Source: Promethearchaeota archaeon
GTDB taxonomy: Archaea > Asgardarchaeota > Lokiarchaeia > Sigyniarchaeales > SOKP01
Assembly: GCA_019058365.1 (NCBI GenBank)
Contig: JAHPZE010000010.1
Location: 32,001 to 96,000, forward strand
Length of the DNA: 64,000 nt
Direction: 5' to 3'
Part shown: positions 43,095 to 62,381 of the stretch, in pieces
Numbering within the stretch: position 1 is the stretch's first letter
How the letters are laid out: each line of letters begins with the position of its first letter
Made by a program: the position numbers and the translations under genes
The notes under the pieces: generated by a model
What the model saw: only the letters and a program-made list of their open reading frames with translations
What the model was told of the DNA's origin: nothing
The model's database searches: none

Positions 43095-43922
43095 TTAGAT
43101 TAAATATCGGAAGATTTTAAGAATAGTTTTACCTTTTTCTGTGATAGTGATTTTCTTATTCTTTTTATCTTTAGAGATTTCTATATATCCAAGTTGATTT
43201 GCTAAGGGTTCAATGAATCTTTTGTTTACTTTCATATAGTAGCTTGACTGACGAGATCTCAAGTCATCGTGTTTTTTTTGGAGTTTTAGGAATCCCCTTT
43301 TAATAAGAATTTCAATAAATTTCTTTTTATAGATGAATTTTACTGGGAATCTGGTTACTTTTTCTGAATATTTATTTTGTATGGTTTTATAAAGGATTTT
43401 TAATACTTTAATAAGAATTTCTGGAGGCTTTATTATTGGAAAAATTGGGGGGAAAATTATTATCATTTCACCCTGATGTCTTGGTCCTTCCACAGAAGGA
43501 TTATATTTGGTAGAATATACATAATACACTTCACAATCCCATAATCTAGCCGCTTCTGTTGAGGCTAATGCTGTAATATTCGAACCTGTACCAATATTAA
43601 TCATGATTTTGGATTTTTGTTCAATTTTTCTTTCAGCTCTAATAATTTTTGAAATTTCTTGAATTATTTCTATATAATTAGTATAGTCAATTTCATTTTG
43701 AATAATTATGATATTAGGCATTTTGAGCTTCAAGAATTCAATATTTTGGTGAAAATATTCCATATTTTCGTCTTTTTGATTAGTACTTTTGATATATGCA
43801 GTAAAGTAATATAATTTATACGGTACATAGTTAAGAATAGGTGTTGTGATTCTATAATCTTCTTTACAATTAAAAACAATATGAACCCGAGTATTATCAA
43901 TTTTACCTTTGTTCTTAAACAT
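43095..43922 (-). CDS. DUF6293/HFX_2341-like (Csa3-like CARF + wHTH) transcriptional regulator
   Basis: RVHI..RI..P, INIGTGS.ITAL and YYV motifs; C-terminal ITITEKG wing. Confidence 0.75.
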   Translation of the reverse strand: MFKNKGKIDNTRVHIVFNCKEDYRITTPILNYVPYKLYYFTAYIKSTNQKDENMEYFHQNIEFLKLKMPNIIIIQNEIDYTNYIEIIQEISKIIRAERKIEQKSKIMINIGTGSNITALASTEAARLWDCEVYYVYSTKYNPSVEGPRHQGEMIIIFPPIFPIIKPPEILIKVLKILYKTIQNKYSEKVTRFPVKFIYKKKFIEILIKRGFLKLQKKHDDLRSRQSSYYMKVNKRFIEPLANQLGYIEISKDKKNKKITITEKGKTILKIFRYLI

Positions 43923-45426: not shown

Positions 45427-45675
45427 TTACTCCTCTTTATTCAAGTTTGATACACATATATAACCAAAGTCTGTTGAGGATTTTGGTTTTAATTCATCAA
45501 GGTTTACTATTTGAGTTCTATGTCCGCGATGTGTTTTCTCAAATTGCTGTAATAATTGTATCGCTTCAAAATTATTAACATTAATAATGCAATATATATG
45601 GCAATCAAAATAAGCTCTCACTCTTACTTCTTTTAATTTATTATTAATCGAATTATTCAGAACCAATTTTATCAT
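45427..45675 (-). CDS. Small Zn-finger-like protein ((C/Y)xxC..HxGH), paralog of 54534-54716
   Basis: YFDCH..FEKTHRGHRTQIVN aligns with CFKCH..FDSSHSGHPVQIVN. Confidence 0.65.
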   Translation of the reverse strand: MIKLVLNNSINNKLKEVRVRAYFDCHIYCIINVNNFEAIQLLQQFEKTHRGHRTQIVNLDELKPKSSTDFGYICVSNLNKEE

Positions 45676-45770
45676 ATCCCTTTTTCAAAATCATTACGAT
45701 TTTCATAGACCCCCTCACTATGAGCAATCTTTTTATGACATGCGTTTTTGAAAAAAAAGATTAAAGAATT

Positions 45771-46427
45771 TTATTTAGAATCTAACTCAGAAAATAATTC
45801 TATGTGATTTTTTATAAAATTCCTAGTTCGGTGAGAGAACTTTTTTTCAAGCTTAGATTCATCGTTAATATATTTTTTATAAACTAACCATTGTCCATAA
45901 AGCCATAAATATGAGTCTATCTCTTGATAAGAAGGTTTCCAACTTAAACTTACTATTAAATCATCCAAATCTTTTTTAAATTGAGTATAATTGCTTTCAT
46001 AACAGCTCTTCATGTTCCCTAAAAGATAACTCAGTGCATACCGTGAATATCTATCGTAAATGGGAAATTTATTAGGGTAATGAAAATGACAATATTTACT
46101 TGAAAACACAAATCCAACCCGTCTTTTATAAGGTGAAGGCTGAATCTTTGCTATTTCTTCAACTAACTGTTCAAGGTTATTTTTATCGAATTTAGAATCA
46201 ATTTCTAATTGCTGAATTTCATGGGCTATTAATCTCTTATCCATATTAAGATTACAATTATATAATTTATTCACTAACTCTATTTTGTAGCCTATGTCAT
46301 GAAAATCTTTATTTTCTTTCTTATTATTAAATTCACGCCTTAATAACTTGTTCACTTCATTCCAACTAAGCATTTTATTCCTAATTTCTACTGCGGCCTC
46401 AATATTTTTTTGGTTAATCGTTTTCAT
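45771..46427 (-). CDS. Hypothetical protein, possible HhH/DNA-glycosylase-like fold
   Basis: SKYCHFHYPNKFPIYD and IDSYLW motifs; the fold call is inference. Confidence 0.55.
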   Translation of the reverse strand: MKTINQKNIEAAVEIRNKMLSWNEVNKLLRREFNNKKENKDFHDIGYKIELVNKLYNCNLNMDKRLIAHEIQQLEIDSKFDKNNLEQLVEEIAKIQPSPYKRRVGFVFSSKYCHFHYPNKFPIYDRYSRYALSYLLGNMKSCYESNYTQFKKDLDDLIVSLSWKPSYQEIDSYLWLYGQWLVYKKYINDESKLEKKFSHRTRNFIKNHIELFSELDSK

Positions 46428-46494
46428 TTTTCATCATTCTCTTTTTTATGTTTTTCTAATGTATCAATATCCGCAGTATAAATATTTACAATAA

Positions 46495-47055
46495 CTAAGA
46501 ATAATTTTCAATTTTCAGTATGGATCTCGTTAAAAATTCAAAAATCTGTTCAATATTTTCTCCAGTTTTAGAGGAACATTCGAAGTTTTTAACGATTTTA
46601 TATTTTTTTGAGATTTTCTTAGCGTATTTTCTGGATATTACTCTTTCTTTATGGAGATCTAATTTGCCACCAACCATTAAGAGAGGAATTTTCTTTTTAT
46701 CATTAGATAAATTATCTTTGAATAATGTTAACCATTTTTCTACGTTTTTTATACTGGAATAATTAGTGATATCATACATAAAAATACCTCCTGATATACC
46801 CTTTATAAAAATTGGGAAAATAAATTGAAATTGAGGATCACTTCTAAGATTCCAAATTTGAAGTATAATTTTAGAAGAATTTATTGTTAAATTTTTAAGC
46901 GCAATATCTATGCATACTGGTGGCTTTACTTCCTTTTTTTGAATACCTGCTTGGGTTAATGAAGTTTTTCCAACATTTCTTTCGCCAAAAATACATATTT
47001 TGAAGATTGAATCCTTGTTTATTTCTTGCACCTCCAATTTTTTAAAAGTTTCCAA
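46495..47055 (-). CDS. Rab-like small GTPase with degenerate G3
   Basis: G1 GERNVGKTS, G4 GKLD and G5 ECSSKTG; G3 reads WNLRS instead of WDxxG. Confidence 0.88.
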   Translation of the reverse strand: METFKKLEVQEINKDSIFKICIFGERNVGKTSLTQAGIQKKEVKPPVCIDIALKNLTINSSKIILQIWNLRSDPQFQFIFPIFIKGISGGIFMYDITNYSSIKNVEKWLTLFKDNLSNDKKKIPLLMVGGKLDLHKERVISRKYAKKISKKYKIVKNFECSSKTGENIEQIFEFLTRSILKIENYS

Positions 47056-47404
47056 GTTTTCTTTTAACTATAGAATCTATTAATCACTTCTATTGGCATT
47101 TTTTTACTTAACTTAAAATTAAAGATAAATCCTTATACCTTATTTTATTATATCAGGGATATTTATAGGTGATTCTATAGAAGATCCTATATAACAATAA
47201 AATAGTCAAACATTTTGTATTTAAATCTTTACTTCTTTATTTTTTCTTTAAATTATTTTAATATTATTGGTGATTTGCTTCATTTTCTATAATAGAAATA
47301 CTAAAGTGATTAATTTAATAAAAGATAAATATCATAATATTATCTTATTTATAGTAAGATTAAAAGCATAAAAATAGAATTTTAATTTAAGGAGTGTGAA
47401 ATAA

Positions 47405-47947
47405 ATGTCAGAAGCAACAATTAATGAGGAATTTACTACTAAACTGAAAAATGAGCAATTTCTCTATTTTGCAGATAATTCTTATTTAGGAATTGCGTTA
47501 ATCCAGAGAGGACATCTCATATATTCTAATACAAAATTTGGAGAAATCTTTGGCTATTCTCAAGAAGAGATCTCAAAATGGAAAAAGAGAGAATTCTATA
47601 ACATTGTGCATCCTGAAGATTTAAAACATTTAGTAGAGACATTTAAGATTGAAAATGATAAAAGAACTATAACAATACGATTTAGAGGTATAAGGAAAGA
47701 TAAAAGCATAATTAATATAGAAAATTATAATTGTCAAATTAAATATAATAATAAGTTTGCAGTTTTATCCAGTTATATTCCATTAGAAGAAACCTTTGAA
47801 GAAGAACCCTATACTCCTAAAATGATAAAGATAAAGAGAGAAAAAATAATTATATTGAAATATCATTCAGATATAGAGAAACTCCTAAAAGATAGTAATC
47901 TGAAATTTGAAATTTATACCCATTCTTCATATCGAGAAGAAAATTAA
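47405..47947 (+). CDS. Stand-alone PAS-domain protein (copy 1)
   Basis: N..F.EIFGYS.EE..VHPEDL PAS motif; conserved SYREE C-terminus. Confidence 0.88.
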   Translation: MSEATINEEFTTKLKNEQFLYFADNSYLGIALIQRGHLIYSNTKFGEIFGYSQEEISKWKKREFYNIVHPEDLKHLVETFKIENDKRTITIRFRGIRKDKSIINIENYNCQIKYNNKFAVLSSYIPLEETFEEEPYTPKMIKIKREKIIILKYHSDIEKLLKDSNLKFEIYTHSSYREEN

Positions 47948-48141
47948 TGTTCATTTTCTTGGATTTCTTCATTTTCTTTCGAGATTTCTTCAAAATGAAC
48001 ATTATATCTCTTTTCAGGATCAAGAACCTTATGCTTAATTAACGTTCTTGGGATATATACGATTGTATCTGGTCCCATTGAGGCTAATTTTATATTCTCT
48101 AAGGTGAAGATTCTCTTCTCTCTATTCATACTTAATCGCAT
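47944..48141 (-). CDS. Small AbrB/SpoVT-like DNA-binding protein (copy 1)
   Basis: KLASMGPDTIVYIPR.LI..LDP...YNVHFEEI; three paralogs in the window. Confidence 0.7.
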   Translation of the reverse strand: MRLSMNREKRIFTLENIKLASMGPDTIVYIPRTLIKHKVLDPEKRYNVHFEEISKENEEIQENEH

Positions 48142-49423
48142 TAAATTTCACTTTAAACATTTTTTATTATATTTTATTGAGCTTTAAATATTTCCCTATA
48201 GAGGTTAATATTTTTACAAAACGACTTTAGTCATAAATTCGCATAGTATCATTCTTAATGTATTGATTATAATTATTCCTTTATATCTTTATCAAAATCT
48301 TTTATTTTTTTCTTAATTAAATTAGTAAATTAAAAATAATGTTATTATCTCCATTAAAAAACGATGCTTTAGTTCCTATGATGGTTATGTTTATATATTT
48401 TCGAAAGAATGGAATGATAATAAATTGTAATCAGCAATATCGAGTCTTTGAAAATCTTCTCTTACCCCTAACGAACAATCTATTCAATTTCCTAATAAAT
48501 TATGTCTTTTTCCCATATATTATAGTTATAATCTTGTTCTTGGTGTTCCTCCCAACTTAATAGACACTCACTCTAATTTCCTTCAAATATATGAATCCAT
48601 ATAAGAATGTTATGATAGAGGGTTATCGTAACAAAAAATTTATATCATTTTATCAAGAAAAGAAGAAGAATAAAGAGTGAAGTTGTAATGGTGATTTTCA
48701 TATTAAGGAACAGTGTAATAAACTTCTTTCATTATATCAGAAAATAATGGTTATTTTACAAGCCAAATCTTAATAATTCTATAATTTCATTACTATTTAA
48801 AGAAAAATTCTACTAAATATTGATAAAATCAGTCCTTTAAGATGGTAACATGCAAAGAGTTGCATAAGGATTTGCTTGACGGGACAATAATGACTATTAG
48901 TCGCATTCATAAGTATTTTGTGATTGTTGAAAATATCTATAAAAAGAAGAGGAATTATGAACCGAGAAATAGTTATCGCTGGTGAATCAAAGAAAGAGAA
49001 AAAGACAGAGAAAAAAATGAATAACTGGAGAAGAATTAAGGAAGGAAACGATTATAGTTATAACATTAAATGAGAAAGAAATATTACAATTTTTATCAGA
49101 AATATTTGACAATCCTAAGTAAGCATTGTAATTATCGATTTTTATAGAGTTCTTTTGACATATTGCTTTAAAAAGATAACAAATTGCCGGTTAGGTAATA
49201 TTTTCTCTATCTTAAACCAATACATAATTTTTAAATTATAAGAATTCTCCAGATTTTATTCTTATAAATCACTAATTTTTTCTGAAGTGAAGTAAAATAA
49301 ATTTGCAGATTCAATTAATAGAATTAAAATTATGAAGAATTATAAGTTAAAATCGGTTTTAAGTAAATTTGAATTAATATATGGAGGAATTTACAGGTTA
49401 AAATGAGAATAATAAGAAAGGGA

Positions 49424-49543
49424 GACTCCTGCCAACAAGACGCAAAAACGCGTCGGAAAAACAATATAGGGTAAGGAGGGCGAAATCAGAGTGTAAGAAT
49501 TTACACTACCAAAAGACAAAAATCCAGGGTGTAGGCAGGAGTC
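49424..49543. ncRNA. Candidate 120-nt structured RNA
   Basis: 10-bp closing stem GACTCCTGCC/GGCAGGAGTC plus internal hairpins GACGC/GCGTC and AGTGTAA/TTACACT; GC-rich island in AT-rich intergenic DNA. Confidence 0.55.
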
Positions 49544-49694
49544 ATTGTTTTCTATATAGATTTAATATCTAGTTTACATGTTGCTATTATTGAAATTTAT
49601 GAAAGATATGTGATTTAGAGTTTATATACTAATTCATAATCGTATTAATGTTTGATTTAAAGCACCTTTAATAATAGATTTTTGTAATTTCGTT

Positions 49695-50084
49695 TTAAAT
49701 ACATTTAAAGTAACTATTTACTTCTCCTTTGACTGCCTTTTCTATATTTTTTACCAGTTTTTTATTATCAAAGGGTTTTTTTATAAAACTTATTGCCCCA
49801 ATCTCCTTGGTTATGTGTTCAATAGCCCAATCCGCACTTATAATTATAATTTTTGCTTTATTATTAATTTGTAATATTTCTTTAGTTGCTTCAAGTCCAT
49901 TTTTTAGCGGCATTTTATAATCCATGATGATGACATCTGGTTTTTTTGAAAATGATAGATATTTAATAACTGCTTCTTCTCCGTTCATTGCTTCATCTAA
50001 AATTTCAAACCCATTTGATTTTAATAATGAGTTGTAAAGTGTTAAAGTAGATAATTCATCCTCAACAAGAAATATGGTTGCCAT
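49695..50084 (-). CDS. Single-domain response regulator (REC)
   Basis: LVEDE, IMDYKMP.KNG, ISA and KKPF motifs; probable ATG at 50084. Confidence 0.92.
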   Translation of the reverse strand: MATIFLVEDELSTLTLYNSLLKSNGFEILDEAMNGEEAVIKYLSFSKKPDVIIMDYKMPLKNGLEATKEILQINNKAKIIIISADWAIEHITKEIGAISFIKKPFDNKKLVKNIEKAVKGEVNSYFKCI

Positions 50085-50734
50085 TTTTCTCCCCTTATGA
50101 ATGAAGCTGAAAAAGTCTAGACCGTTGGAATAGTAGTTTTTCATCTTTTTATATTATATTTCACATTTTTTACGTGTGTTATATCCCAAATCCTAGACTC
50201 TAAAAATAATCACATGAAATTATATATTCTTTCCTCAACCAAAAGAAATCAATTTTTTTTATTAGACTATTGATTTTTTTGTCAAATAAAAAATAAGGCA
50301 CATTTATTTTAAAATATTTTCATGAGGAAATGGTTTTCACGAATGTCCTGTGAAAAAATCGAAATTTATTTCAATAACTTTCTTAATTCTTTTATTAATA
50401 GAGTCTATTCTTTCAAGGGCTATTTCGAAACCATATTTGGATAAATATTGATTTTAAACTTTCAAAGAAATTATAGTTAAATATTCCCATATATTTTTTT
50501 TCGTTAGAAAATTGTTTATGTTAGCAAACCAATCTCTATTGTGATATATTTGAATTGGCGTGTTAGGTTTTTTATAAAAAATCTCTCCATAATTCGAATC
50601 TTTACTAAATAAAAATATACTTATAATAATCTCTTGGATATAATTTTTGTATTCCTAACGATATTTTTTTACGATTAATCAATTTTACCCTCTTTTTTAT
50701 CTAATTTATGATAAAGCGTAGTTGTATGTGTTTT

Positions 50735-50960
50735 TCTCTCTCTTCTTTTGTATCTTCCCAATGCGTCTTAAGTTCTTTTTCTAAGGATACCATAAATTCA
50801 CTTTTCTTTTTTGTCAATTTCCTTCTCCTTTTTTTTATTTTACTTTATTTTTATTGAATCTGAATTCTTACCCATAATATCAAGAATTAAAGTAGAAATA
50901 GGGATTTGTGAAATCTGTTTTATGATAAAACGAAGTACCTCAGAATTAGATTCTATCCCT
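50735..50960. repeat. Near-identical ~225-bp copy of 56932-57157
   Basis: Direct comparison; contains the 3' half of the RHH-like gene and the start of the MVSLEKELKTHW ORF. Confidence 0.9.
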
Positions 50961-51463
50961 TCTATTTACAAAATCCCAAATGGGGTAATTTTGATCTCGT
51001 TATCCCTGTTGATGTTGAGGGAAGATAATAAAATTACCGTATCCAAAGCAAATATTAAATATTATATCCTTCCTGGAGGGATCCAAACATTTGATCCTAT
51101 TACTTTTTTTGAAGATCAGGACCTAATAATTTCTTCTATCAACTAATTTTTCGCAGTTTTTTCTCTGTTTTTTTCATGAAGAAGCATAACATTCTAAGTA
51201 TTAAATAATAAAGAGTATCGGCCTCCTATTATTATGTTCCTACACATATTCTATTATTAATAGGAGTCTAAATAACAGTATCTAGAAAAAAACTTAATAG
51301 AAATTTTCAAAAGAACTTACAACCCTAACTCTCTCAATTTTCATCATTTTTCAAATGATTAAAATTGATCATTAGGTGACCAAAACTAATAAAAATACCC
51401 TTTCATTAAAAAATTACTTTATAAAATCTAGGTAATATAGAATTCTAATTTACAATAAAAATA

Positions 51464-51778
51464 TTAACCAAACTTTCTCCGTACATCCCATAGATCAAGA
51501 GCTTCTTTTAAATCCTCATATTGTTTCGGTTCAAGATGACCTTGTAATTCAAATAATAAACTTTGTATTAAAACTACTAATGATAACATTAGCCGACTGT
51601 CTATATTATGCATTTCAGCCTCCATAGAATCATAAATATTTGGGAAAAGTGTCTTATAGTTTTGCTTTATTTTTGATAATAATAGACTCTTAATTGTTGA
51701 ATTCATCATTTCTGAATGTACGTGTTTAAGATATTGTTTTAATAATGCTAAAAAATCAAATTTGTCCATAATTTCCAC
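51464..51778 (-). CDS. Hypothetical helical protein
   Basis: 104-aa ORF in a run of minus-strand genes. Confidence 0.6.
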   Translation of the reverse strand: MEIMDKFDFLALLKQYLKHVHSEMMNSTIKSLLLSKIKQNYKTLFPNIYDSMEAEMHNIDSRLMLSLVVLIQSLLFELQGHLEPKQYEDLKEALDLWDVRRKFG

Positions 51779-51850
51779 CTCATTTTATTATTATATTTAT
51801 ATTTATAAACTAACTTAGTATAATGCGTTTTTTTTAAAAAAATAAAAAAA

Positions 51851-52798
51851 TTATTTTATTGGTGCCCCATATTTGGGGCAAAAAGCACTAATTTTGTCTA
51901 AAATCTCAACTCCACATGAGGAGCAATAAGTAATTTTTACCAATTCTTTTTCTTGTAATTTAACAGATTTGTCTTTAACAGGTGTATCTTTTTCAATCGA
52001 TATAATTTCATTTGGAGTTCGTTTTCGGTATCTATAAATGAGAGCTATTGCAACAACTGAAGCAACACCTATAGAAGAAAAAATTAATAACCACCAAAAT
52101 AATTGTACTCCAGAATTATCTGAATTACTAAGTGGTTCAATTTCGATAGTGAAGTAATCGCTAAATGTATAAATTGAATCATCGTAATAATCAGAGAGTT
52201 TAATTCGATAATTACTTCCATCATATGTATCACTTGAACTGAGATACCAAGAATAAGAGCCATCGTTATATTCCATAGTATCTATTACTTCTGAGAAAAT
52301 AGCTCCTTTATATAATTCTATTCGCACATAATTTATATTCCCTGTTGTAGACCACGAGATTTCATTATACCCATTATCAAAAGTATCTGTACTCTTTGGA
52401 CTATATATTATAATACTCTTCGCATAAGTTATATCAAAGCTTATTTCAACAGTTTTTGAAGTAATAAGTGAGAATGTATTAGAAAAGTAAACTTTAAAAT
52501 CATCATCATAAGGAGCATTAAAATGTATCGTTCCAGATATAACTCTACCATAATTTTCAATTGTGTCTCCATTAGAATTTTTAATATAAAGATCAATATC
52601 TTTATTTCCTCCCGCAATTACTTCAAATTCAATTGTTAAAATGTCCCCTGCATTTAGATTGAACATGAAATAGAGATAACTTCCTGGGGGAATTGTCTCA
52701 GTATAATCAGGATCATCTATACCAATAGCTGAAATAATAAATGATGAACTAAATCCTAAAACCATTGCCAATGTTAAGATTATATTTTTCTTTTTCAT
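51851..52798 (-). CDS. Type I membrane protein: signal peptide, p24/GOLD-like domain, Ig-like domain, TM helix, C-terminal zinc ribbon
   Basis: FEVIAGGNKDIDLYI..FNA..YFSNTFS..SKTV resembles the emp24/gp25L GOLD domain; tail CSSCG..FCPKYG. Confidence 0.75.
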   Translation of the reverse strand: MKKKNIILTLAMVLGFSSSFIISAIGIDDPDYTETIPPGSYLYFMFNLNAGDILTIEFEVIAGGNKDIDLYIKNSNGDTIENYGRVISGTIHFNAPYDDDFKVYFSNTFSLITSKTVEISFDITYAKSIIIYSPKSTDTFDNGYNEISWSTTGNINYVRIELYKGAIFSEVIDTMEYNDGSYSWYLSSSDTYDGSNYRIKLSDYYDDSIYTFSDYFTIEIEPLSNSDNSGVQLFWWLLIFSSIGVASVVAIALIYRYRKRTPNEIISIEKDTPVKDKSVKLQEKELVKITYCSSCGVEILDKISAFCPKYGAPIK

Positions 52799-52813
52799 AT
52801 CTTGATTTTTAAA

Positions 52814-54334
52814 TTAAAAATAAATATATTTTTTAATTTTAGTAATTAGACTAATTATTGAGAGAAACGATACAAGACCAAGCAATAATAATGGATATCC
52901 TATAATAACAGGTACCCTATTACCTCCAGGAGGAGGATAAGCAATATGTAAAATATTACTCCATTCTCCAATATTAGCATCTTCATTAGGATCTATTCCT
53001 ATAGTATCTCTTGCTCTTATTTTATAATAATAATTTCCATATTCCATTTCAGTAAATTCCAATGACGTATAAGAAGATGTATTTGATTCTAACACCCAAT
53101 ATGTATCATAAATAGTGAAATTTTCTGATTCTGAAACTATCAACTCATAATCTTGAATCCCATTTAAATCTTCAGAATTCCACCATGTTACATACCAATT
53201 ATCGACTGTATATATTGTTTCATTAATTAAACCCATCCATTCAATTTTCTCGGGAGGGTCACAATCTCTTCCATTTATTATGAATAATCCATTAGTATCT
53301 CCCCAATAAACACCTAACTTATCATCTCTAAATTGCATATTTTGGGATTCTATTTTATCAGACCACATATTACCATTGGCTTCTGAAACTTTTGAATAGT
53401 AATGTATATCTGGGGAGCTATAATAATAGCTATAACGATAGATCATTGATGAACTACTCCAATAACCCCTTTCTAAAAAATAAATGTAATTTGCTGTACA
53501 CCATACATCTTTAGGATAATCAAGATTTAAATAAATATAATCCACTAAAGTATTAGTATAGTCATACTGTACGATTTTTCCATCAGCATCATAATCATAA
53601 TCATCATCCTGAGCATAAATAATATATTCTCGGCTAGTATCTAAAAAAGCACTTGTAATTCCAACATCGAAAATCATCGTTTTTATACTATCTGTTAAAG
53701 TATCATATAGATGAATTTCCGTAGAATTATAATATAAAACATATCTTTCACTATATTGAACATCAATTACACCAAAAAAATCGGGACCAATATTTTCAAT
53801 TATTTTATCATTTGAATTCCAGTAAAAAACATTGCTTGCTGTCCTCCATGCTAAATCAATTCTTTCCCAACCAGGAATTTTAAAATATTCGACAGATAAT
53901 TTTTGTGGTATCCAAGTAGAGGATACAACTTTTTGATATGTTAAAATAGATGTATTAAATTTCATAATAGCATTATTATATTCTACTGTTGCTAAAAATA
54001 TCAAATCTCCCTTGGGATCATAAACAGCATCAATATCGCAAACAACTCCAAGATTTCCCCTTACCAATAAAGGAGTAAATGGTTGACTATTTAGATTAAC
54101 TCTATATATCGAACCATTATTAGTTGCGTTATAAAAATATAAATTATCATAACAAAGCTTGAAAATCCCATCTTTAGTTCCAGGTATATTCACTCCATAA
54201 CTAATTCCATTAAAACTATTTGAATAAAGATCATTTTCATTGATCGTTTGAATCTCTTTTGGTTTATTAATATTAAAGCATATAGATAATGATAAAACTA
54301 ATATTAACATTAAAATAATCTTTTTAAACCTCAT
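52814..54334 (-). CDS. Secreted surface protein (beta-propeller-like + FN3-like) with Loki-CTERM-like anchor
   Basis: Signal peptide; YYYKIRARD..GEWS FN3 motif; C-terminal IIGYPLLLLG-TM-KK. Confidence 0.75.
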   Translation of the reverse strand: MRFKKIILMLILVLSLSICFNINKPKEIQTINENDLYSNSFNGISYGVNIPGTKDGIFKLCYDNLYFYNATNNGSIYRVNLNSQPFTPLLVRGNLGVVCDIDAVYDPKGDLIFLATVEYNNAIMKFNTSILTYQKVVSSTWIPQKLSVEYFKIPGWERIDLAWRTASNVFYWNSNDKIIENIGPDFFGVIDVQYSERYVLYYNSTEIHLYDTLTDSIKTMIFDVGITSAFLDTSREYIIYAQDDDYDYDADGKIVQYDYTNTLVDYIYLNLDYPKDVWCTANYIYFLERGYWSSSSMIYRYSYYYSSPDIHYYSKVSEANGNMWSDKIESQNMQFRDDKLGVYWGDTNGLFIINGRDCDPPEKIEWMGLINETIYTVDNWYVTWWNSEDLNGIQDYELIVSESENFTIYDTYWVLESNTSSYTSLEFTEMEYGNYYYKIRARDTIGIDPNEDANIGEWSNILHIAYPPPGGNRVPVIIGYPLLLLGLVSFLSIISLITKIKKYIYF

Positions 54335-54533
54335 TTTTTACCTTTTTTGTCTAGAATTTTCAAATTTAAATATTTTTATAATATTTTTTATAAGGGATTC
54401 TATAAAAAACTCTATATAACTATCTAGTCCTCCAACAAAATATAAATCTTTACTTTTGTTCTCATCTTTTATAGAACTTTAAAAAATTGAAAAAGTAGGT
54501 CCTATCTCTTAAACTTGTCATTAAATTTAAATT

Positions 54534-54716
54534 CTAATTTATATTTATAAAAGAATTTCTCCATTTTTCTCTATCCACCACTTCTTCTTCATTTACAATT
54601 TGTACAGGATGACCGGAATGTGATGAATCAAATATTTTCAACTGATTTTGATTGATATAATCATTTTCAATGATAGGTACATATTCATGACACTTGAAAC
54701 ATACTTTTAGTTTTAT
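54534..54716 (-). CDS. Small CxxC..HxxH zinc-finger protein (not in ORF track; probable ATA start)
   Basis: IKLKVCFKCHEYVP..FDSSHSGHPVQIVNEEEV; paralog of 45427-45675; AGGACGTG SD-like site 6 nt upstream. Confidence 0.65.
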   Translation of the reverse strand: MKLKVCFKCHEYVPIIENDYINQNQLKIFDSSHSGHPVQIVNEEEVVDREKWRNSFININ

Positions 54717-54800
54717 TTAATACACGTCCTTTAGATTTAATTACTAATTTGATTTTGTACTAATTTTTAATTGGCCAGTATTAACAATTAAATTATAGTT

Positions 54801-55337
54801 CTAAATATAACCTCCAGAGTCCATCATTATTCTCGATAAAAATTTAAAAATTGTTTCAACATTTTCTCCAGTTTTAGAAGAACATTCAAAATGTTTAATG
54901 AATTTCAATTTTCTTGCTATTATCTTTGCTTTTCTTTGAGAAATTATTCTCTGTTCTTGGAGATCCATCTTTCCTCCAACTAGCAATAATGGAATTTTCT
55001 TTTCATCCTTGAATAAACTTTGTTTAAATATGGTAATCCAATTCTTTATATTCATTATACTTGAATAATTAGTGATATCATACATCAAAATACCACCAGA
55101 TGCGCCTCCAGTAAAAGAAGGGAAAAGAAACTTAAATTGAGGGTCACTCCTAAAAATCCAAATTTGAAGAGTAATTTTAACTGAATTTATGGTTAACTCT
55201 TTAATTGCAATATCTATACAGGTAGGTGGTTTTGTGTCTTTATTGAATATCTTATGAATCGCTTTTTGAATGAATGAGGTTTTTCCAACATTATTATCTC
55301 CAAAAAGACATATTTTGAAAATTAGATCTCTGCTAAT
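54801..55337 (-). CDS. Rab-like small GTPase with degenerate G3 (copy 2; probable ATT start at 55337)
   Basis: The frame stays open upstream of the ORF-track start: FKICLFGDNNVGKTS..QIWIFRSDPQF..GGKMDL..ECSSKTG. AGGTG SD. Confidence 0.82.
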   Translation of the reverse strand: MSRDLIFKICLFGDNNVGKTSFIQKAIHKIFNKDTKPPTCIDIAIKELTINSVKITLQIWIFRSDPQFKFLFPSFTGGASGGILMYDITNYSSIMNIKNWITIFKQSLFKDEKKIPLLLVGGKMDLQEQRIISQRKAKIIARKLKFIKHFECSSKTGENVETIFKFLSRIMMDSGGYI

Positions 55338-55636
55338 TTATAACACCTTATTAAGTTAAATTCTTTCTATATCTTAATCAAAAAGAACAGGAGAATTTAA
55401 TTTTAAACTATTACCCTTGCTTTCCCTTTATTATCACTTCAAAGTGATATTATAGAATATTCTATAAGGAACCCTATATAAAAATATAAAAAGAGATAGA
55501 TTTAAATTTTTGTTTTTGTTCGTAAAGTGAGAACAACTTATAATTCTACAAAAATATATAAAACCACTTAAAAAATTATATTATTAGAGAAAATTTTAGA
55601 CAAAATATCGCGTAAGAATATTTCAGAGTATAAACC

Positions 55637-56176
55637 ATGTCAGAAATCAAAGAAAATGAAGATTTTAGTACGAAATTAAAGGATGAGCAGTTTCTATATT
55701 TTGCAGATAATTCTAATCTGGGAATTCTGATAATTCAACAAGGCTATATAAAATATTATAATCACAAATTTCCAGAAAGTTTTGGCTATTCTCCAGAAGA
55801 GATCTCGCAATGGAAAAAGAGAGAATTTTTCAAAATAATCCATCCTGACGATCTAAATCAATTATTACAAAATCTTAATATTGAGGATGATAAGATGGTA
55901 TCTTTTCGATTTAGAGCAATAACTAAATCACAGAGAATTGTTAACATAGAAGTTTATCTCTGTATAATACGATACAATAATGCAAGAGCCTATTTAATAA
56001 GCACTTCATCATTAGATGAAATCTCTACAGAAGAAGCATATCTTCCAAAAAAAATAACGATAAATAAAAAGACAAAAATTATATTAGATTATCATTCAAA
56101 TGTAGTTAAACTGTTAGATGACAATAATATAGCTTTTGAAATCATTAGAAATTGCTCATATCGAGAAGAACAATAA
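55637..56176 (+). CDS. Stand-alone PAS-domain protein (copy 2)
   Basis: Paralog of 47405-47947. Confidence 0.88.
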   Translation: MSEIKENEDFSTKLKDEQFLYFADNSNLGILIIQQGYIKYYNHKFPESFGYSPEEISQWKKREFFKIIHPDDLNQLLQNLNIEDDKMVSFRFRAITKSQRIVNIEVYLCIIRYNNARAYLISTSSLDEISTEEAYLPKKITINKKTKIILDYHSNVVKLLDDNNIAFEIIRNCSYREEQ

Positions 56177-56177
56177 G

Positions 56178-56360
56178 TTAATTTTCTGACCTCTTATTTG
56201 AGACTTCTTCGAAATGTACATTGTATATTTTAGTAAGATCAAGAACTTTATGCTTAATTAATGCTCTAGGGATATATACGATTGTATCTGGTCCCATTGA
56301 AGATAATTTTACATTTTCTAATGTAAAGATTTTCTTCTCTTTTCTCATAAGGTATCGCAT
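56178..56360 (-). CDS. Small AbrB/SpoVT-like protein (copy 2)
   Basis: Paralog of 47944-48141. Confidence 0.7.
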   Translation of the reverse strand: MRYLMRKEKKIFTLENVKLSSMGPDTIVYIPRALIKHKVLDLTKIYNVHFEEVSNKRSEN

Positions 56361-56730
56361 TAAATTTGACTTTAAATATTTTACATTATATTTTATTGAA
56401 CTTTAAATATTTGTATTAAAATAAAAATTTATAGAGTTCCCTATAGAATGAACTTTTATTTCCAATAGTATTTATTCCTATCTCAGATCCATCACACCAT
56501 AGTATATGTTTTCTGATTTAGTGAAGTATTAAATAGTATTTTTCAATTTTTAATTATGGAACTAATAATTTGACAAAAGCATCAATATAGGTGTAGAATT
56601 ATATTAATAGAAATTGAATTTCCTAAAAAAATTTTCTATGGCAACAATCGAAAAAATAGAGAAAGAAAACAAGACGGATATTATTATTATATAAAAAAAA
56701 TAGTTTTATTTTTCATTTATTCTACCTCTT

Positions 56731-56990
56731 TTAACTAACTAGTTCTAATTTATCTATAATTTCTATTTTATTTCCTTTCCCATCAATTTTATATCTTCTT
56801 AATCCTTTTGGACTTTTCCCTTTTGAATAATCTATTAGCATTTTAATAAAACGTTTAAATTCCTTTTCTTCTTTCATTTCAATTTACTCTTTTCATTTGA
56901 TTTTTGAAGAAGTTTAGCTGTATGGGTTTTTTCTCTTTCTTCTTTTGTTTCTTCCCAATGCGTCTTAAGTTCTTTTTCTAAGGATACCAT
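56731..56990 (-). CDS. Two overlapping microproteins (38 aa at 56874-56990; 48 aa at 56731-56877)
   Basis: MVSLEKELKTHW..* and MKEEKEFKRF..*, coupled by an ATGA overlap. Confidence 0.4.
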
Positions 56991-57036
56991 AAATTCACTT
57001 TTCTTTTTTGTCAATTTCCTTCTCCTTTTTTTTATT

Positions 57037-57246
57037 TTACTTTATTTTTATTGAATCTGAATTCTTACCCATAATATCAAGAATTAAAGTAGAAATAGGG
57101 ATTTGTGAAATCTGTTTTATGATAAACCGAAGTACCTCAGAATTAGATTTTATCCCTGAAGATTTTTTGATTTCTGAAAAGGGATGATATAGCGGGTCTT
57201 CTTGAGTAAGGGTAAGTCTTAGTTCAATATTTTCGTTAATAGTCAT
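57037..57246 (-). CDS. RHH-like small regulator
   Basis: Strand-helix-helix pattern IELRLTL..PLY..F..IKK..GIKSNSEVLR; GAGGT SD. Confidence 0.7.
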   Translation of the reverse strand: MTINENIELRLTLTQEDPLYHPFSEIKKSSGIKSNSEVLRFIIKQISQIPISTLILDIMGKNSDSIKIK

Positions 57247-57397
57247 ATTTTTACCTCTTTTATGCTAATTAATTTTTTTTTATCCAATTTTGTCATAAAA
57301 AAGATATTTTTTTATATATATAAATATTCGTGATAATTTAGGATAAATCTGGAGTAATTTACAAAAAGTTATATTTTTCTCAAAATATAATATCTTT

Positions 57398-57595
57398 ATG
57401 GATAAACACAATGAAACTGAAGAAGAAATAGGTATTAGACTAAATCTTTCAAAAGAAGTAGATCAACCATTATATGATTATTTCCAACAAATAAAGAAAA
57501 ATCTAGGCCTAAAAACCAATACAGAAGTAGCGAGGATATGTATAAAAAAAGCGTATGAATACTGGTTTAGTAAAGGGGATACAGAAATAATTTAA
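57398..57595 (+). CDS. RHH-like small regulator, divergent paralog of 57037-57246
   Basis: IGIRLNL..PLY..F..IKK..GLKTNTEVAR. Confidence 0.7.
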   Translation: MDKHNETEEEIGIRLNLSKEVDQPLYDYFQQIKKNLGLKTNTEVARICIKKAYEYWFSKGDTEII

Positions 57596-57812
57596 TTTTA
57601 TTTAATTTTTTCCAATTTTTTTTAATTCCTCTTGGATTTCATTATCAGCCATAATAACAGTATTAATTTGTGATTTCAAATATCTAATACCTATTACTAT
57701 TTAAATAATTTTTCTATAATACCGACATTTTTAAAATCTCTTTTTTTACTCTCAATCACCTCACCCTTTCTCTAGAGCTCAGAATTGTTTTATTTTAAAA
57801 AGTCTTATCTTC

Positions 57813-58433
57813 TTATTTTACAAGCTCTTTTAACTCAAAATAGATTTCATTGATTTTTTCTATATCCTCTGTGAGTTCCTCGTTATTGACGATATTTCTA
57901 ATTCCTGATAAACCAATTTGATACTTACTCAATATGGTTATCAGATAGTTCATAGGATCATCAAATCGGCATTCAATTTTTGCTAATTCAGATAGATTAA
58001 AGCTTCTCAAATTAGATATATGAAGCCTAATTATATCTACCAAATATCTTTCTTCTGTCCTTAGATCCCACTTTCCAAGAATACCAAATAATCGCTTATA
58101 TTTACCACGTTCATTAAATTCCTTTAATACTCCTCTCAGCTCATAAATTTCTGATATTAAGGACATAATTCTCTCAATTATAATTCTTAAGTGTTCATTT
58201 CTTGCTTTCTTCTCTTTAATGTATTGAATATACAATATAATAAAAGGACTTAAAATTATAATAAATTGGATTGTTTCAGTTAAATTAACAATGTTATGAC
58301 CCCAATTCAAAATAATGAATATCCCAATGATCATTCCGATAAAAATAAATAATCCTAATGAATAAAAAACAAACCATCTTTTTAATTTTTTAAATATTAC
58401 ACGATAATTCTTTCTTTCGTTATTTATAACCAT
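57813..58433 (-). CDS. Hypothetical membrane protein (2 N-terminal TM helices)
   Basis: Hydrophobicity pattern. Confidence 0.65.
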   Translation of the reverse strand: MVINNERKNYRVIFKKLKRWFVFYSLGLFIFIGMIIGIFIILNWGHNIVNLTETIQFIIILSPFIILYIQYIKEKKARNEHLRIIIERIMSLISEIYELRGVLKEFNERGKYKRLFGILGKWDLRTEERYLVDIIRLHISNLRSFNLSELAKIECRFDDPMNYLITILSKYQIGLSGIRNIVNNEELTEDIEKINEIYFELKELVK

Positions 58434-58541
58434 AGTTTAATCATCATTCTTATATTGATTTTAGCTCTCTATTATTTAACCAATTATTAGTATTATCTCT
58501 AAATTTAAATGACTTTTTTACTTCTACTTGAAAAAAAAAAA

Positions 58542-58787
58542 TTATAGTTTTTGCGTTTCATAATAAAATGAAACTAAGAAATATCCTCGTTTTTCTGTGT
58601 AAGTTGCCTTCTCCATTCCACATTCTTTTTTGATCGGATCATTCTCAGGAAGGGGAATTATTAGAGGGGGAATATAGGTATGTTGAATAAATCTAATCTT
58701 TTTTTCCTTGTTTTCTAAAAGCCAATTATTAATTTTTAATTGAATATCATCCTCTAATCTTAACGTTAAGATTGTGTAACTCAACAT
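58542..58787 (-). CDS. Hypothetical protein
   Basis: The ATG lies 1 bp after the upstream stop codon. Confidence 0.55.
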   Translation of the reverse strand: MLSYTILTLRLEDDIQLKINNWLLENKEKKIRFIQHTYIPPLIIPLPENDPIKKECGMEKATYTEKRGYFLVSFYYETQKL

Positions 58788-58788
58788 T

Positions 58789-59271
58789 TTAATCAACTTT
58801 AATAAAGTAGACTTCTTGGATGAATTCTTCTATTTTTCTGATATCATCTCTTCTATTGAAGTGAAATTTCCAATCATCCCCATTAATCATGATATATCCG
58901 TATTGTTTTAGACCTTTTACAAGTAAGACAATCCCTATAATAATTAGAATAGGGCCTATCAGATATACCAGAGTAGATAAATTAACACTCAATGCAATCC
59001 CTACTGTTAAGAAGATTGCACCCAAAATTAAGAATAATTTATTTCTAGCGTGCCACGCATTTTCGATATATGAGATTTTAGTAAGAGGTATATCTCGATA
59101 GATTCGGTCATACCCTTTCAACTTTTTAAAATGAAATATTCTTTTATTTGTAATCCCTAAAATATTCTGTTTAACTTTTTTCTGAGTAACAGAGCTAATT
59201 TCCCCCTTCGGTCCGATTTCCCATTTGAATAGAATCGATTCTTGATTATTTAAATAATTCTCTATTGACAT
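58789..59271 (-). CDS. Prokaryotic PH-like domain protein with TM hairpin
   Basis: LGITNKRIF..RDIPLTKISYIE motif and two TM helices; GAGGT SD before ATG 59271. Confidence 0.7.
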   Translation of the reverse strand: MSIENYLNNQESILFKWEIGPKGEISSVTQKKVKQNILGITNKRIFHFKKLKGYDRIYRDIPLTKISYIENAWHARNKLFLILGAIFLTVGIALSVNLSTLVYLIGPILIIIGIVLLVKGLKQYGYIMINGDDWKFHFNRRDDIRKIEEFIQEVYFIKVD

Positions 59272-59484
59272 ATTTATACCTCTTTTTATTTTTTGGTTAC
59301 CAAATTTAAGTTTGATTTTCAATCTCTTTATAGAGTTCTCTATAGAAGGTAGTATAAATAAGAAGAATATTCCGTCAAAATATAAATCTTTACTTTTATA
59401 AAAAGATTAAAATTAGATAGCAAATTATTATGTTCGGGAATAATGTAGACAAAAAATACTACAAATCAGAAATGAGTGTAAGAA

Positions 59485-60024
59485 ATGTCAAAAGCAATAA
59501 TAAATGAAGAATTTTCGACTAAACTAAGGAATGAAACATTACTTCATTTTGCCGAGAATTCAACTATAGGGGTTTTAATAATTCAGAGAGGATATTTACA
59601 ATATTTTAACCAAAAATTTACAGAGATTTTTGGGTATACTAAAAAAGATATTCTACAATGGAAAAAAAGAGAATTCTATAAAATTGTTCATCCTGAAGAT
59701 TTACCATACTTAATAGAATTCTTTAAGATTGAAACAGATAAAAAAACAGTATCAGTACGATTTAGAGGGGTAAAAAAAGATAACCATATAATCGATATAG
59801 AGAATTATATGTGTTATATTAAATATAACAATAAAACAGCATGCTTATCAAGCTATATTTCTTTAGAAGAGTCCTTTGATGAAATCTATGTTCCTAAATT
59901 GAGCAAAAGAAAAATAGAAAAGAAAATCATATTAGATTATCATCCAGACATAGTTAAATTTTTAGGAGATAATACTATAAAATTCGAAATTATCAAATGT
60001 AGCTCATTTCGAGAAGAATATTAA
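59485..60024 (+). CDS. Stand-alone PAS-domain protein (copy 3)
   Basis: Paralog of copies 1 and 2. Confidence 0.88.
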   Translation: MSKAIINEEFSTKLRNETLLHFAENSTIGVLIIQRGYLQYFNQKFTEIFGYTKKDILQWKKREFYKIVHPEDLPYLIEFFKIETDKKTVSVRFRGVKKDNHIIDIENYMCYIKYNNKTACLSSYISLEESFDEIYVPKLSKRKIEKKIILDYHPDIVKFLGDNTIKFEIIKCSSFREEY

Positions 60025-60209
60025 CCCTCTTTTTCATGATCCTCTCCAGATATCTCTTCAAAATGAACATTATATTTTTTTTCAGGATCAAGAATCTTAT
60101 GCTTAATTAATGCACGGGGAATATAGACAATAGTATCTGGACCCATAGAAGCTAATTTTACATTTTCTAACGTAAAAATATTCCTCTCTTTATTCATATT
60201 CTGTTCCAT
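60021..60209 (-). CDS. Small AbrB/SpoVT-like protein (copy 3)
   Basis: Paralog of copies 1 and 2. Confidence 0.7.
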   Translation of the reverse strand: MEQNMNKERNIFTLENVKLASMGPDTIVYIPRALIKHKILDPEKKYNVHFEEISGEDHEKEG

Positions 60210-60329
60210 ATTGGATCACTTTAAATAATTTTTATTATATTTTATAGAACTTTAAATATATTTTTTCAGATAGAGTTCTATAGGAGGCTCTATAGGGGAC
60301 TTTAAACAATAATGTTAATGGTGTAAAGA

Positions 60330-60488
60330 ATTAAGATTGAAATTGAAATACCTGATAAAGTATATAAATTCTTCAATGTTCGAGCTATCTTTAATAACAG
60401 AAAAATAAATGAAGAAATATCACAGTTTTTAGAAAAAGAATATGAAATCTTAAAAGATTTGTCATTTGATGAAGCTATAGCTTCTTAA
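60330..60488 (+). CDS. Arc/RHH-like small protein (not in ORF track; probable ATT start)
   Basis: IKIEIEIPDKVYKFFNVRAIFNNRKINEEISQFL; GGTG 6 nt upstream. Confidence 0.55.
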   Translation: MKIEIEIPDKVYKFFNVRAIFNNRKINEEISQFLEKEYEILKDLSFDEAIAS

Positions 60489-60909: not shown

Positions 60910-62381
60910 GTGAAAACAGAGCTGAAATCTGAGAATTTAATCTCAAAATGGAAGAAAGTATTACTTATTAAACCAAATTACAAAAATAGTGATGCCTACA
61001 TGTATTATATTAAGATGAACTTTCCTCCACTAAATTTAGCATACATCGCTAGTTATTTACTAGATCTAAACATTGATGTTGAAATTCTTGATGCGAAAGT
61101 AAACAATTTTAATTGTTGGGAATTAAAGAGAAAAATTATGAAATTTAAACCAGACTTGATTGGAATATCTGTATATCTCTCTGCAGTGATTAATGAAAGC
61201 TTTAAAATAGCTAAGATTATAAAACAAATTGATCCGAAAATAACGGTTGTATTTGGTGGTAGGCATCCTACATTTGAGTCTGAGCAAATTCTTAAAAGAA
61301 ACGAAGTTGATATCATTGTAAGAGGGGAGGGAGAAATTACATTCAGAGAATTAATCACTAAAGGAAATCCTCAATGTATTGAAGGGATTTCTTATAGAGC
61401 AAATGGCATAATTGTACATAATCCAGATAGACAATTAATGAATTATTCAGACGTTAGGCTTCCTGCAAGATATCTTTTAAACGGTAATAAATATTGGATA
61501 TATACAGTGAGACTAGAAACTGTTGAATCTTCAAGAGGATGCCCTACTCATGTAAATTTTGTATTACACCGAATTTTTATAAGCGTAGTTGGAGACCACG
61601 ACCAGTTGAAAAAATTATTACGGAATTAAAAATGATCTCAAGAAATCGAAAAATTTCAGATATCTTTTTTGTTGATGATAATATGACTGCTAATACAAGA
61701 AGAGTTGAACATCTATGTGAAAAAATAATCGAATGTAAAAAGAAAAATGAAATAAGAGATTTTAAATTTTTTGCTCAAATTAGAGTAGATTCTGTGGTAA
61801 AATCTCCTCAAATGGTTAAAAAAATGGCTGAAGCCGGATTCTGGGTTGTATTGATTGGAATTGAGAGTATATTTGAAGAAACCTTAAAAGAAGTAAGAAA
61901 AAATATGAACTTTCAGGCTGTTTTAGATGCAATTAAAATTCTACATAGAAATGACATCATTGTTGTTGGAAATATGATCATTGGGGTAAATCTACATGAA
62001 AAAGAAGAAGATGTCAAAAAAGAAATAAAATATATGTCAAAGACAGATATCGATATATTAACTTTTAGTATATTAACTCCTTTTCCAGGAACTATCACAA
62101 TTCGGGAATTAGAAGAAAAAAAACTCATTATAAGTAAAAATTGGTCTAAATATACAATAATTAAACCTGTAATTAAAACATACAAGTTGAGCCCTAAAAA
62201 GTTGAGTGAACTTCTTTTATATTCTTTTCAGAAAATAAAATATATCAATAATCAAAAAGGATTGTTGTTAAGAATAATAAAGAAGCGTGGAATTCTATTT
62301 ATATTAAATCCCGTTCGAATCGTATTATTACTGAAAGCTTTCATTAAGATGAGAATTTTTTTCAAAGCTCACAGAAAATAA
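60910..62381 (+). pseudogene. B12-binding radical SAM protein with a 1-nt frameshift at ~61542
   Basis: PPLNLAYIAS, GGRHPT and GEGE motifs, then SRGCP|YSCKFC split between frames, followed by FVDDN, IGIES and TPFPGT. Confidence 0.88.

Follow-up and report, generated by a model that had tools for sequence, protein, structure and literature searches.

A candidate PAS-tuned AbrB/MazE-type repressor and its putative tandem operator facing exchangeable cargo genes in a Promethearchaeota island

Why does one region of an archaeal genome hold three diverged copies of the same convergent gene pair, a PAS gene and a small AbrB-like gene, each with its own divergently transcribed neighbors? We addressed this question in a 64-kb window (the whole stretch of DNA analyzed) within contig C24 of a Promethearchaeota archaeon, searching the 4.74-Mb source genome as well. 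The closest relatives of this genome are metagenome-assembled genomes (MAGs) of Promethearchaeota (Lokiarchaeia), which bears out the Asgard origin given in the initial annotation, made from the sequence alone. On balance, we think it probable from sequence comparison that the locus carries a portable two-gene regulator with its operator, in which an AbrB/MazE-type repressor, tuned by the PAS protein, would act on interchangeable cargo genes in a variable island. Most likely the pair and its operator would switch neighboring genes on or off, most often a relative of eukaryotic Rab proteins that is predicted to be catalytically dead.

The three PAS genes (plus strand, 47405-47947, 55637-56176, and 59485-60024) all encode proteins that match Pfam PAS_3 above the cutoff (E about 1e-10) and PAS/LOV structures in Foldseek (E about 1e-6). 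Pfam detected no kinase (HisKA/HATPase) or receiver (REC) domain in any of them, and no LOV motif, invariant photoactive Cys, or other diagnostic ligand motif is conserved in an 18-sequence alignment. In each of them the PAS fold spans about residues 16 to 127 and is followed by a family-specific tail of 45 residues. This tail is conserved, with a ratio of nonsynonymous to synonymous substitution rates (dN/dS) of about 0.30, and is predicted with high local confidence yet left unpaired in the monomer model, as in obligate-dimer domains. Within the length range searched it was seen only on PAS-family proteins, and it resembles nothing known in profile comparisons or an Atlas search; the idea that it is a degenerate AbrB half was rejected for want of profile similarity or an Atlas match.

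The small genes run toward the PAS genes on the minus strand and encode proteins of 55 to 61 amino acids (aa). They occupy open reading frames (ORFs) at 47944-48141 (copy 1, ATG at 48129), 56178-56360 (copy 2, gene 56178-56348), and 60021-60209 (copy 3, gene 60021-60197), and a fourth copy, without PAS, lies on contig C29. Identity among the window copies is 54 to 63% for PAS and 73 to 78% for the small gene, and homology continues into noncoding DNA on both sides. Coordinates and homology thus agree with the initial description of three intact, kinase-less PAS genes placed tail to tail with a small gene between conserved noncoding flanks. The pair is also a conserved unit, as had been proposed. 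The small gene stands directly tail to tail in 28 of the 32 PAS-family hits of the genus, the other four being split over two contigs, duplicated as tandem PAS, separated by a 1.3-kb insertion, or joined to an RHH-like gene in place of the small gene; the genomes are kin rather than independent, so such family counts are descriptive and not a statistical test. Copies 1 and 3 share with PAS a 4-nucleotide (nt) overlap of stop codons, found in 15 of 29 measured pairs, which leaves no space for terminators, so that the two convergent transcripts probably overlap. The AbrB-like gene has a median dN/dS of 0.14, PAS one of 0.25, and the GTPase cargo discussed below one of 0.38. The linkage is therefore present elsewhere and both paired genes are under purifying selection, the opposite of what simple neutral duplication would give.

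Local amplification of the cassette as a unit was not upheld. A clade of the three window PAS copies is rejected by the approximately unbiased (AU) test (p-AU 6e-43), and every window PAS copy is closer to one in another genome, copy 1 being nearest to those of G015 and G025. Neutral local triplication is excluded by this rejected monophyly together with purifying selection, and the PAS copies are old paralogues or separate acquisitions brought together in one island.

What the small protein is was approached through its distant relatives. A profile search gave 211 of these, some with tandem repeats, and of 100 that were aligned, 8 matched TIGR02609 (best 1.2e-5), 5 matched MazE_antitoxin, and a few matched PemI/MazE or DUF2080. 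An addiction-module antidote in the PDB matched weakly (E 0.11). The monomer model consists of a strand (residues 7 to 14), a hairpin, a helix (28 to 32), and a strand (41 to 47), a beta-beta-alpha-beta arrangement of cradle-loop type in which the first and last strands pair. By shape it comes closest in the Atlas to a cluster with a MazE content of 16% (TM scores 0.55/0.64; root mean square deviation 2.2 Å over 47 residues), and a fold search of the monomer against the PDB returned no significant match, the top, nonsignificant one being a dimeric double-zeta beta-barrel (DZBB). Transitively, then, remote homology and the modeled fold support a DNA-binding protein of the AbrB/MazE superfamily, and the initial AbrB-like label stands to that extent, without a direct match behind it. 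Some distant relatives (P0131-P0133, P0144, P0160, and L069:3879-4217) carry two tandem AbrB-like repeats per chain in an MraZ-like layout.

The conserved flanks contain one element that the initial annotation left undescribed and that proves to be the best conserved: on the cargo strand, a B recognition element (BRE)/TATA promoter (AAGATTTAAAT-like) is followed 25 to 34 nt on by an array of boxes. Each unit of the array reads three pyrimidines-TATA-three purines, a palindrome that recurs with a 12-bp period. All cargo promoters of the window are on the minus strand. The first, at 47163-47236 (first T of TATA at 47225), has three YTATAR half-sites with 12-bp period at 47163-47192; the second, at 55450-55517, has a TATA and three half-sites at 55450-55479; and the third, at 59328-59397, has BRE/TATA and three half-sites at 59328-59357. 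A further copy without PAS nearby, at 54376-54457, has BRE/TATA and four half-sites at 54376-54417. Together these promoters front both GTPase genes, a PH-like gene, and, at the PAS-less copy, a gene for a 506-aa surface protein followed by one for a p24/GOLD protein. The 12-bp phasing is exact and, with the position behind TATA, is kept across a dS near 1.

The boxes are concentrated at this locus. Of the 25 genomic occurrences of TATAG-N6-CTATA, 6 are here, as are 4 of the 5 occurrences of the three-box form. A box matrix trained only on other genomes was scanned over the genome, with the reversed genome as control. At a score of at least 19 it found 8 sites (6 at this locus, 1 at the solo AbrB-like gene on C29, and 1 elsewhere) versus 5 in the reversed genome; at 21 there were 6 versus 1, and at 24 there were 4 versus 0. 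Among the 43 TATA-plus-array sites listed, a degenerate Rab-like GTPase, here called pseudo-Rab, is the target of 14 and the commonest identified target. No complementary covariation was found at variable box positions, which rules out an RNA hairpin or cruciform and indicates a double-stranded DNA site.

Boxes also lie upstream of the AbrB-like genes themselves. A double box occurs at 56429-56446, at -98 from the AbrB-2 start and 27 nt after an outward-facing TATA-like hexamer, and another at 60278-60295, at -98 from the AbrB-3 start; upstream of the probably leaderless copy 1, a single half-site is left (48196-48201). Across 38 AbrB-like genes, 18 have a box within 135 nt upstream, against 0.009 expected, including 7 PAS-less copies. 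A double box stands at about -98 (-99 to -97) in 15 of the 38, a half-site at -50 in 24, and a TATA-like hexamer at -28 in 33. This TATA-like element and the upstream boxes suggest that the AbrB-like gene is leaderless and autoregulated. Several PAS-less copies that keep the box carry remnants of a deleted PAS gene. The promoter with array was found in 21 of 154 genomes (4 in the reversed control), two of the 21 matches looking like AT-rich chance; the AbrB-like family, present in 37 of the 154, occurs in 18 of these 21, and the composite motif is missing from 114 of the 117 genomes that lack the family.

Contact between the two proteins has some support from modeling. A cofold of two AbrB-like and two PAS chains scored 0.35 versus 0.05 for the best control, a weak pass, with at least 57% of contacts in common between runs and a partner predicted local distance difference test (pLDDT) value of at least 66. 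The mark used was reached by 58 of 80 solved pairs and 2 of 110 mismatched pairs, and at scores of 0.60 or less by only 7 of the 80 solved pairs and by both mismatches. The result is of modest weight, as gene linkage had already made PAS-AbrB binding plausible.

In the mechanism that we propose, each of the tandem YTATAR sites, which are two-fold symmetric, would hold a dimer of the AbrB-like protein, giving one dimer every 12 bp. Since the sites cover the expected start point 25 to 60 nt past the cargo TATA, binding would repress the cargo operon, and the sites upstream of the AbrB-like gene, judged by their position, would serve autoregulation. The PAS protein would sense a cytoplasmic ligand and alter DNA binding of the repressor by contact, probably via the 45-aa tail, in the manner of a split SpoVT or an anti-repressor. 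Cargo behind the promoter would be swapped by short-homology recombination, most often pseudo-Rab with a Zn-finger microprotein and otherwise PH/transmembrane (TM), surface, TIR, or other genes. Pseudo-Rab would be the regulated output, probably a nonswitching scaffold or decoy among the roughly 60 Ras-like GTPases of the genome.

Several observations weigh against a PAS-tuned AbrB-like repressor. The 28 close members of the small-protein family gave no direct Pfam or PDB match to AbrB, and AbrB membership of the query is transitive only, through distant homologues. Cooccurrence of boxes and AbrB-like genes is mostly physical linkage and hence not independent evidence. Repeated loss or disruption of the PAS gene has left the AbrB-like gene and the boxes in place, which makes PAS an accessory, and some cassettes have no divergent gene at all. 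The main gap is that promoter and boxes occur in G061 (95% complete), G067 (94%), and G020 (92%), where no close AbrB-like gene was found. This last point favors an alternative that we regard as unlikely, that the array is a real operator with another binder, be it the PAS tail acting in a one-component fashion, a distant AbrB-like paralogue, or an unlinked factor. G061 has such a distant gene, adjoining two Zn fingers, and the conservation of the tail and its unpaired state in the monomer model would suit a DNA-binding dimer. However, the tail has no known match, and boxes flank AbrB-like genes in G001, G005, G016, G031, and G071, where no PAS-family gene was found. A lineage-wide factor would not readily explain why nearly all genomes that lack the AbrB-like family also lack the composite motif, and a pair of RHH-like genes in the window was ruled out as box binder, as it is present in only 5 of 54 genomes.

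It is also conceivable, and in our judgment decidedly unlikely, that the pair is a functional autoregulated unit whose cargo genes are mere hot-spot neighbors, the promoter having spread by recombination with no consistent regulatory logic. That account fits the low GC content, the CRISPR-Cas, CARF, and HEPN-like genes and transposase remnants next door, the patchy occurrence, the many deletions and frameshifts, and the great variety of cargo. It does not fit the exact phasing behind TATA or the distribution of pseudo-Rab: a PAS-facing operon contains 17 of its 26 copies, and the box is retained at 5 of the 7 that lack PAS. The sensory module originally envisaged, in which the PAS and AbrB-like proteins would act with the GTPase and Zn finger as one protein signaling chain from prokaryotic sensing to a small-GTPase switch, could draw on pseudo-Rab being the commonest divergent neighbor (16 of 38 PAS copies, head to head) and on Zn fingers that recur beside GTPase and AbrB-like genes. 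We found no protein-level support for it and consider it very improbable, given a GTPase that is unlikely to cycle, conflicting PAS and GTPase trees, PAS-less GTPase copies, and cargo that is replaceable by unrelated genes. Least credible is that the pair is a toxin-antitoxin pair, a small transposable element with repeats at its ends, or the neutral triplication excluded above. Distant homologues do match antitoxin and transposase-associated (DUF2080) families, and boxes lie on both sides of the pair; against this, the genes are convergent and form no operon, no toxin neighbor recurs across about 40 loci, the loci differ in where flank homology stops and have no transposase or integrase family in common, and the window has no tRNA. 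No PAS or AbrB-like relatives are encoded on viral contigs, and no sign of a viral origin was found. By the tests made, the pair is not a two-component system, a toxin-antitoxin pair, a transposon, or a provirus.

The predicted output is itself unusual. As initially annotated, Ras-family genes are present at copies 1 and 2, on the minus strand at 46495-47022 and 54801-55337. The best PDB match is Thor-Rab 7EZB (E 8.5e-29), with which pseudo-Rab shares the P-loop, G5, and absence of a C-terminal Cys; G1 GxxxxGK[TS] and G5 SSK are kept in nearly all clade members. Unlike Thor-Rab, an active GTPase that hydrolyzes GTP (PMC10933270), pseudo-Rab has an invariant Pro-Pro for the switch-I Thr, has lost both Asp and Gly of G3 DxxG(Q), and has lost the G4 Asn, mostly to Gly, in all 19 aligned members. 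The G3 Asp is kept in nearly all other Ras-like proteins of the genome. Lacking the switch-I Thr and DxxG, pseudo-Rab is unlikely to cycle, and its motifs indicate that the clade probably does not switch.

The clade comprises 26 copies in 17 genomes, 16 head to head with PAS, 1 in another PAS-facing operon, 7 PAS-less, and 2 at the end of a contig. The GTPase and PAS trees disagree, the copy-1 GTPase being nearest to copies in G061 (dS 0.13 to 0.17), which has no PAS-family gene. The link of the GTPase to PAS and AbrB thus looks transcriptional, through a shared promoter and operator, rather than that of a signaling complex. One locus, L102, has a 64-aa, internally deleted pseudo-Rab. Roadblock-like/Rab fusions with intact motifs (L099:3958-5124 and L102:906-2024) stand beside pseudo-Rab in a box-controlled operon.

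Intactness of copy 2 depends on its start codons. The GTPase and Zn-finger frames of this copy have no ATG, GTG, or TTG, and each opens right after a TAA with ATT or ATA; the GTPase has an ATT behind AGGTG with the in-frame TAA immediately upstream. The copy-1 GTPase likely starts at ATA (47022) behind GGAGGTG, an in-frame TTG lying upstream at 47055. Across the GTPase family, most copies have ATT or ATA 6 to 7 nt past AGGTG, and three have ATG there; in the short Zn-finger family an in-frame TAA is directly followed by a starting ATA in seven loci, and one locus starts at ATG. Genome-wide, ATA and ATT peak 7 to 8 nt after AGGTG, as ATG does. The near-cognate starts are most likely true, since in relatives the same ribosome-binding motif precedes an ATT/ATA or ATG at the corresponding position; their conservation, with purifying selection on the GTPase, rules out pseudogenes and leaves copy 2 intact. 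Elsewhere in the genome, an actin-like gene on contig C34 (minus strand, about 311881-313041) has no ATG, GTG, or TTG in its first 54 codons and an apparent ATT start behind GAGGTG, and among 3361 long ORFs, 87 have no canonical start within their first 35 codons.

The remaining cargo differs from copy to copy. A GTPase with a CxxC/HxxH Zn finger had been described at copies 1 and 2. This is so at copy 2, where the short-subfamily microprotein (54534-54716, minus strand, ATA start) has an intact CxxC...HxxH; at copy 1 the long-subfamily protein (45427-45675, minus strand) keeps HxxH but has Tyr for the first Cys of CxxC, and the two are different subfamilies with 28% identity. Between GTPase and Zn finger at copy 1 lies a 218-aa orphan (45771-46427, minus strand), with no PDB or PADLOC match, inserted at the ribosome-binding and start region that in relatives leads straight to the Zn finger (junctions compared with L045, L102, and L070). 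At copy 3 the PH-like membrane protein reported earlier is present (58789-59271, minus strand; weak bPH_3 and TM; ATG behind GAGGT), together with an 84-aa gene (58542-58796, minus strand). Directly behind the PAS-less promoter is the gene for the 506-aa secreted or membrane-anchored protein (52814-54334, minus strand), followed by one of eukaryote-like architecture, p24/GOLD, Kre9-like (Ig), TM, and Zn ribbon (51851-52798, minus strand; EMP24_GP25L E 1e-12; last CxxC reading CPKY), probably the second gene of a box-controlled operon.

Exchange of cargo, as first suggested, is well borne out, with unrelated genes swapped behind the same promoter across related loci. The operons are permutations of a shared pool of pseudo-Rab, two Zn-finger types, a 230-aa protein, roadblock-Rab, TIR, and PH/TM genes. 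Insertions lie at start regions or carry a short duplicated gene end, junctions that point to short-homology recombination. A defense-system search of the cargo gave no matches except TIR cargo in another genome. A frequent cargo gene of 222 to 243 aa, found in 9 related loci and without a Pfam match, also occurs on C24 just outside the window, at 97903-98568 (L096:2904-3569), 6 kb past copy 3.

The setting is a variable island. GC content of the 42- to 64-kb region is 26.0% versus 29.5%, CRISPR-Cas and CARF genes border it, and transposase remnants lie inside. Its flank (4830-43922) holds CRISPR-Cas genes of types I and III along with HEPN-like genes, remnants of transposases, and several CARF proteins, one of which, at 43095-43922 and outside the module, matches PADLOC CARF3 (E 4e-97). 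The PAS family occurs in 20 of 54 genomes of the genus and 25 of 161 of the class, all within one Promethearchaeota family, so that the module is restricted to that family and not Asgard-wide. Other features of the window include a gene-poor, decayed-looking stretch at 48200-51460 and, within it, a short element (49406-49551) with further copies on C9, C37, C46, and C54 and in other genomes, possibly a miniature inverted-repeat transposable element or small RNA. The divergent, related RHH-like microproteins are at 57037-57246 (minus strand) and 57398-57595 (plus strand); the 3' part of one recurs at 50694-50960 with 94 to 98% identity, and in G063 and G067 the pair adjoins a ParB-like gene, with a box between the genes. 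A radical-SAM/B12 gene at 60910-62381 is in two overlapping frames (239 and 280 aa) and is a single 503-aa ORF in G015, which points to a frameshift or assembly error.

In Bacillus, SpoVT is an AbrB domain fused to a GAF sensor, and AbbA is an anti-repressor of AbrB. The arrangement proposed here would similarly couple AbrB-type DNA binding to a sensor fold or separate binding partner, but the sensor is PAS rather than GAF, has a family-specific tail, and is encoded by a separate, tail-to-tail gene; the small protein has no sequence match to SpoVT or AbbA. The closest precedent is the E. coli MazE operator "cab," whose three tandem AT-rich sites are occupied by three MazE dimers (PMC4333400). 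Common to both are a small protein, here putatively of swapped-hairpin type, three tandem AT-rich palindromic sites at a promoter, and, as proposed here, autoregulation and partner-modulated binding. In contrast to E. coli, a toxin is absent, as is a long tail for binding one; the partner is PAS on the convergent gene, and the main sites are at a divergent cargo promoter behind an archaeal BRE/TATA. The SpoVT fold is named in the same source, as are archaeal PhS018/RIFT-type cradle-loop barrels and Sso7c4, which resemble the small protein as short beta-alpha-beta proteins that dimerize and give no significant match (PMC4333400); the predicted dimer of the small protein may be of swapped-hairpin or RIFT-like type.

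Archaeal two-component systems include stand-alone REC proteins and PAS-rich kinases (PMC5847659, PMC10343646). The response regulator initially noted near the module is a stand-alone REC of this common kind and not a member: it is not conserved with the pair, having one weak relative (39%) in about 75 related loci, and the PAS protein itself lacks HisKA, HATPase, and REC. PAS-rich kinases lie within a few kilobases in several related loci, and L044:733-4191 (with similar long genes in L047 and L049), likewise a few kilobases from a cassette, encodes a 1150-aa protein in which an Arf-like GTPase is truly fused to several PAS domains. Small GTPases have been reported from an integrated, mobile-like, strain-variable region of Atabeyarchaeia (PMC11529989), which likewise places eukaryotic-signature GTPases in variable Asgard DNA; the GTPases there are Arf-like, and their description includes neither a regulator nor an operator. 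In the literature we found no account of a PAS-AbrB pairing, nor of any transcription factor that acts on Asgard eukaryotic-signature genes through a defined operator.

The finding concerns one family with a patchy distribution, and within it the locus offers a complete, cheap test set in a 6- to 7-kDa protein, a 20-kDa sensor, and a 30-bp site. A bolder reading, possible if rather doubtful, is that the PAS-sensed repressor cassette with its outward-facing operator-promoters is a portable switch that captures eukaryotic-signature genes (pseudo-Rab, p24/GOLD, PH/TM, and roadblock-Rab) and places them under environmental control, with the induced pseudo-Rab acting as a decoy that retunes the Rab-like network of the cell. 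If true, Asgard archaea would have, for their eukaryote-like trafficking genes, a regulon with a defined sensor, factor, and operator, of a kind that we did not find in the literature. The locus shows pseudo-GTPase genes shuffled among promoters in variable islands. Its Rab clade, catalytically degenerate yet under selection, suggests that the origin of pseudo-GTPases was not confined to eukaryotes and that they also arose among Asgard archaea.

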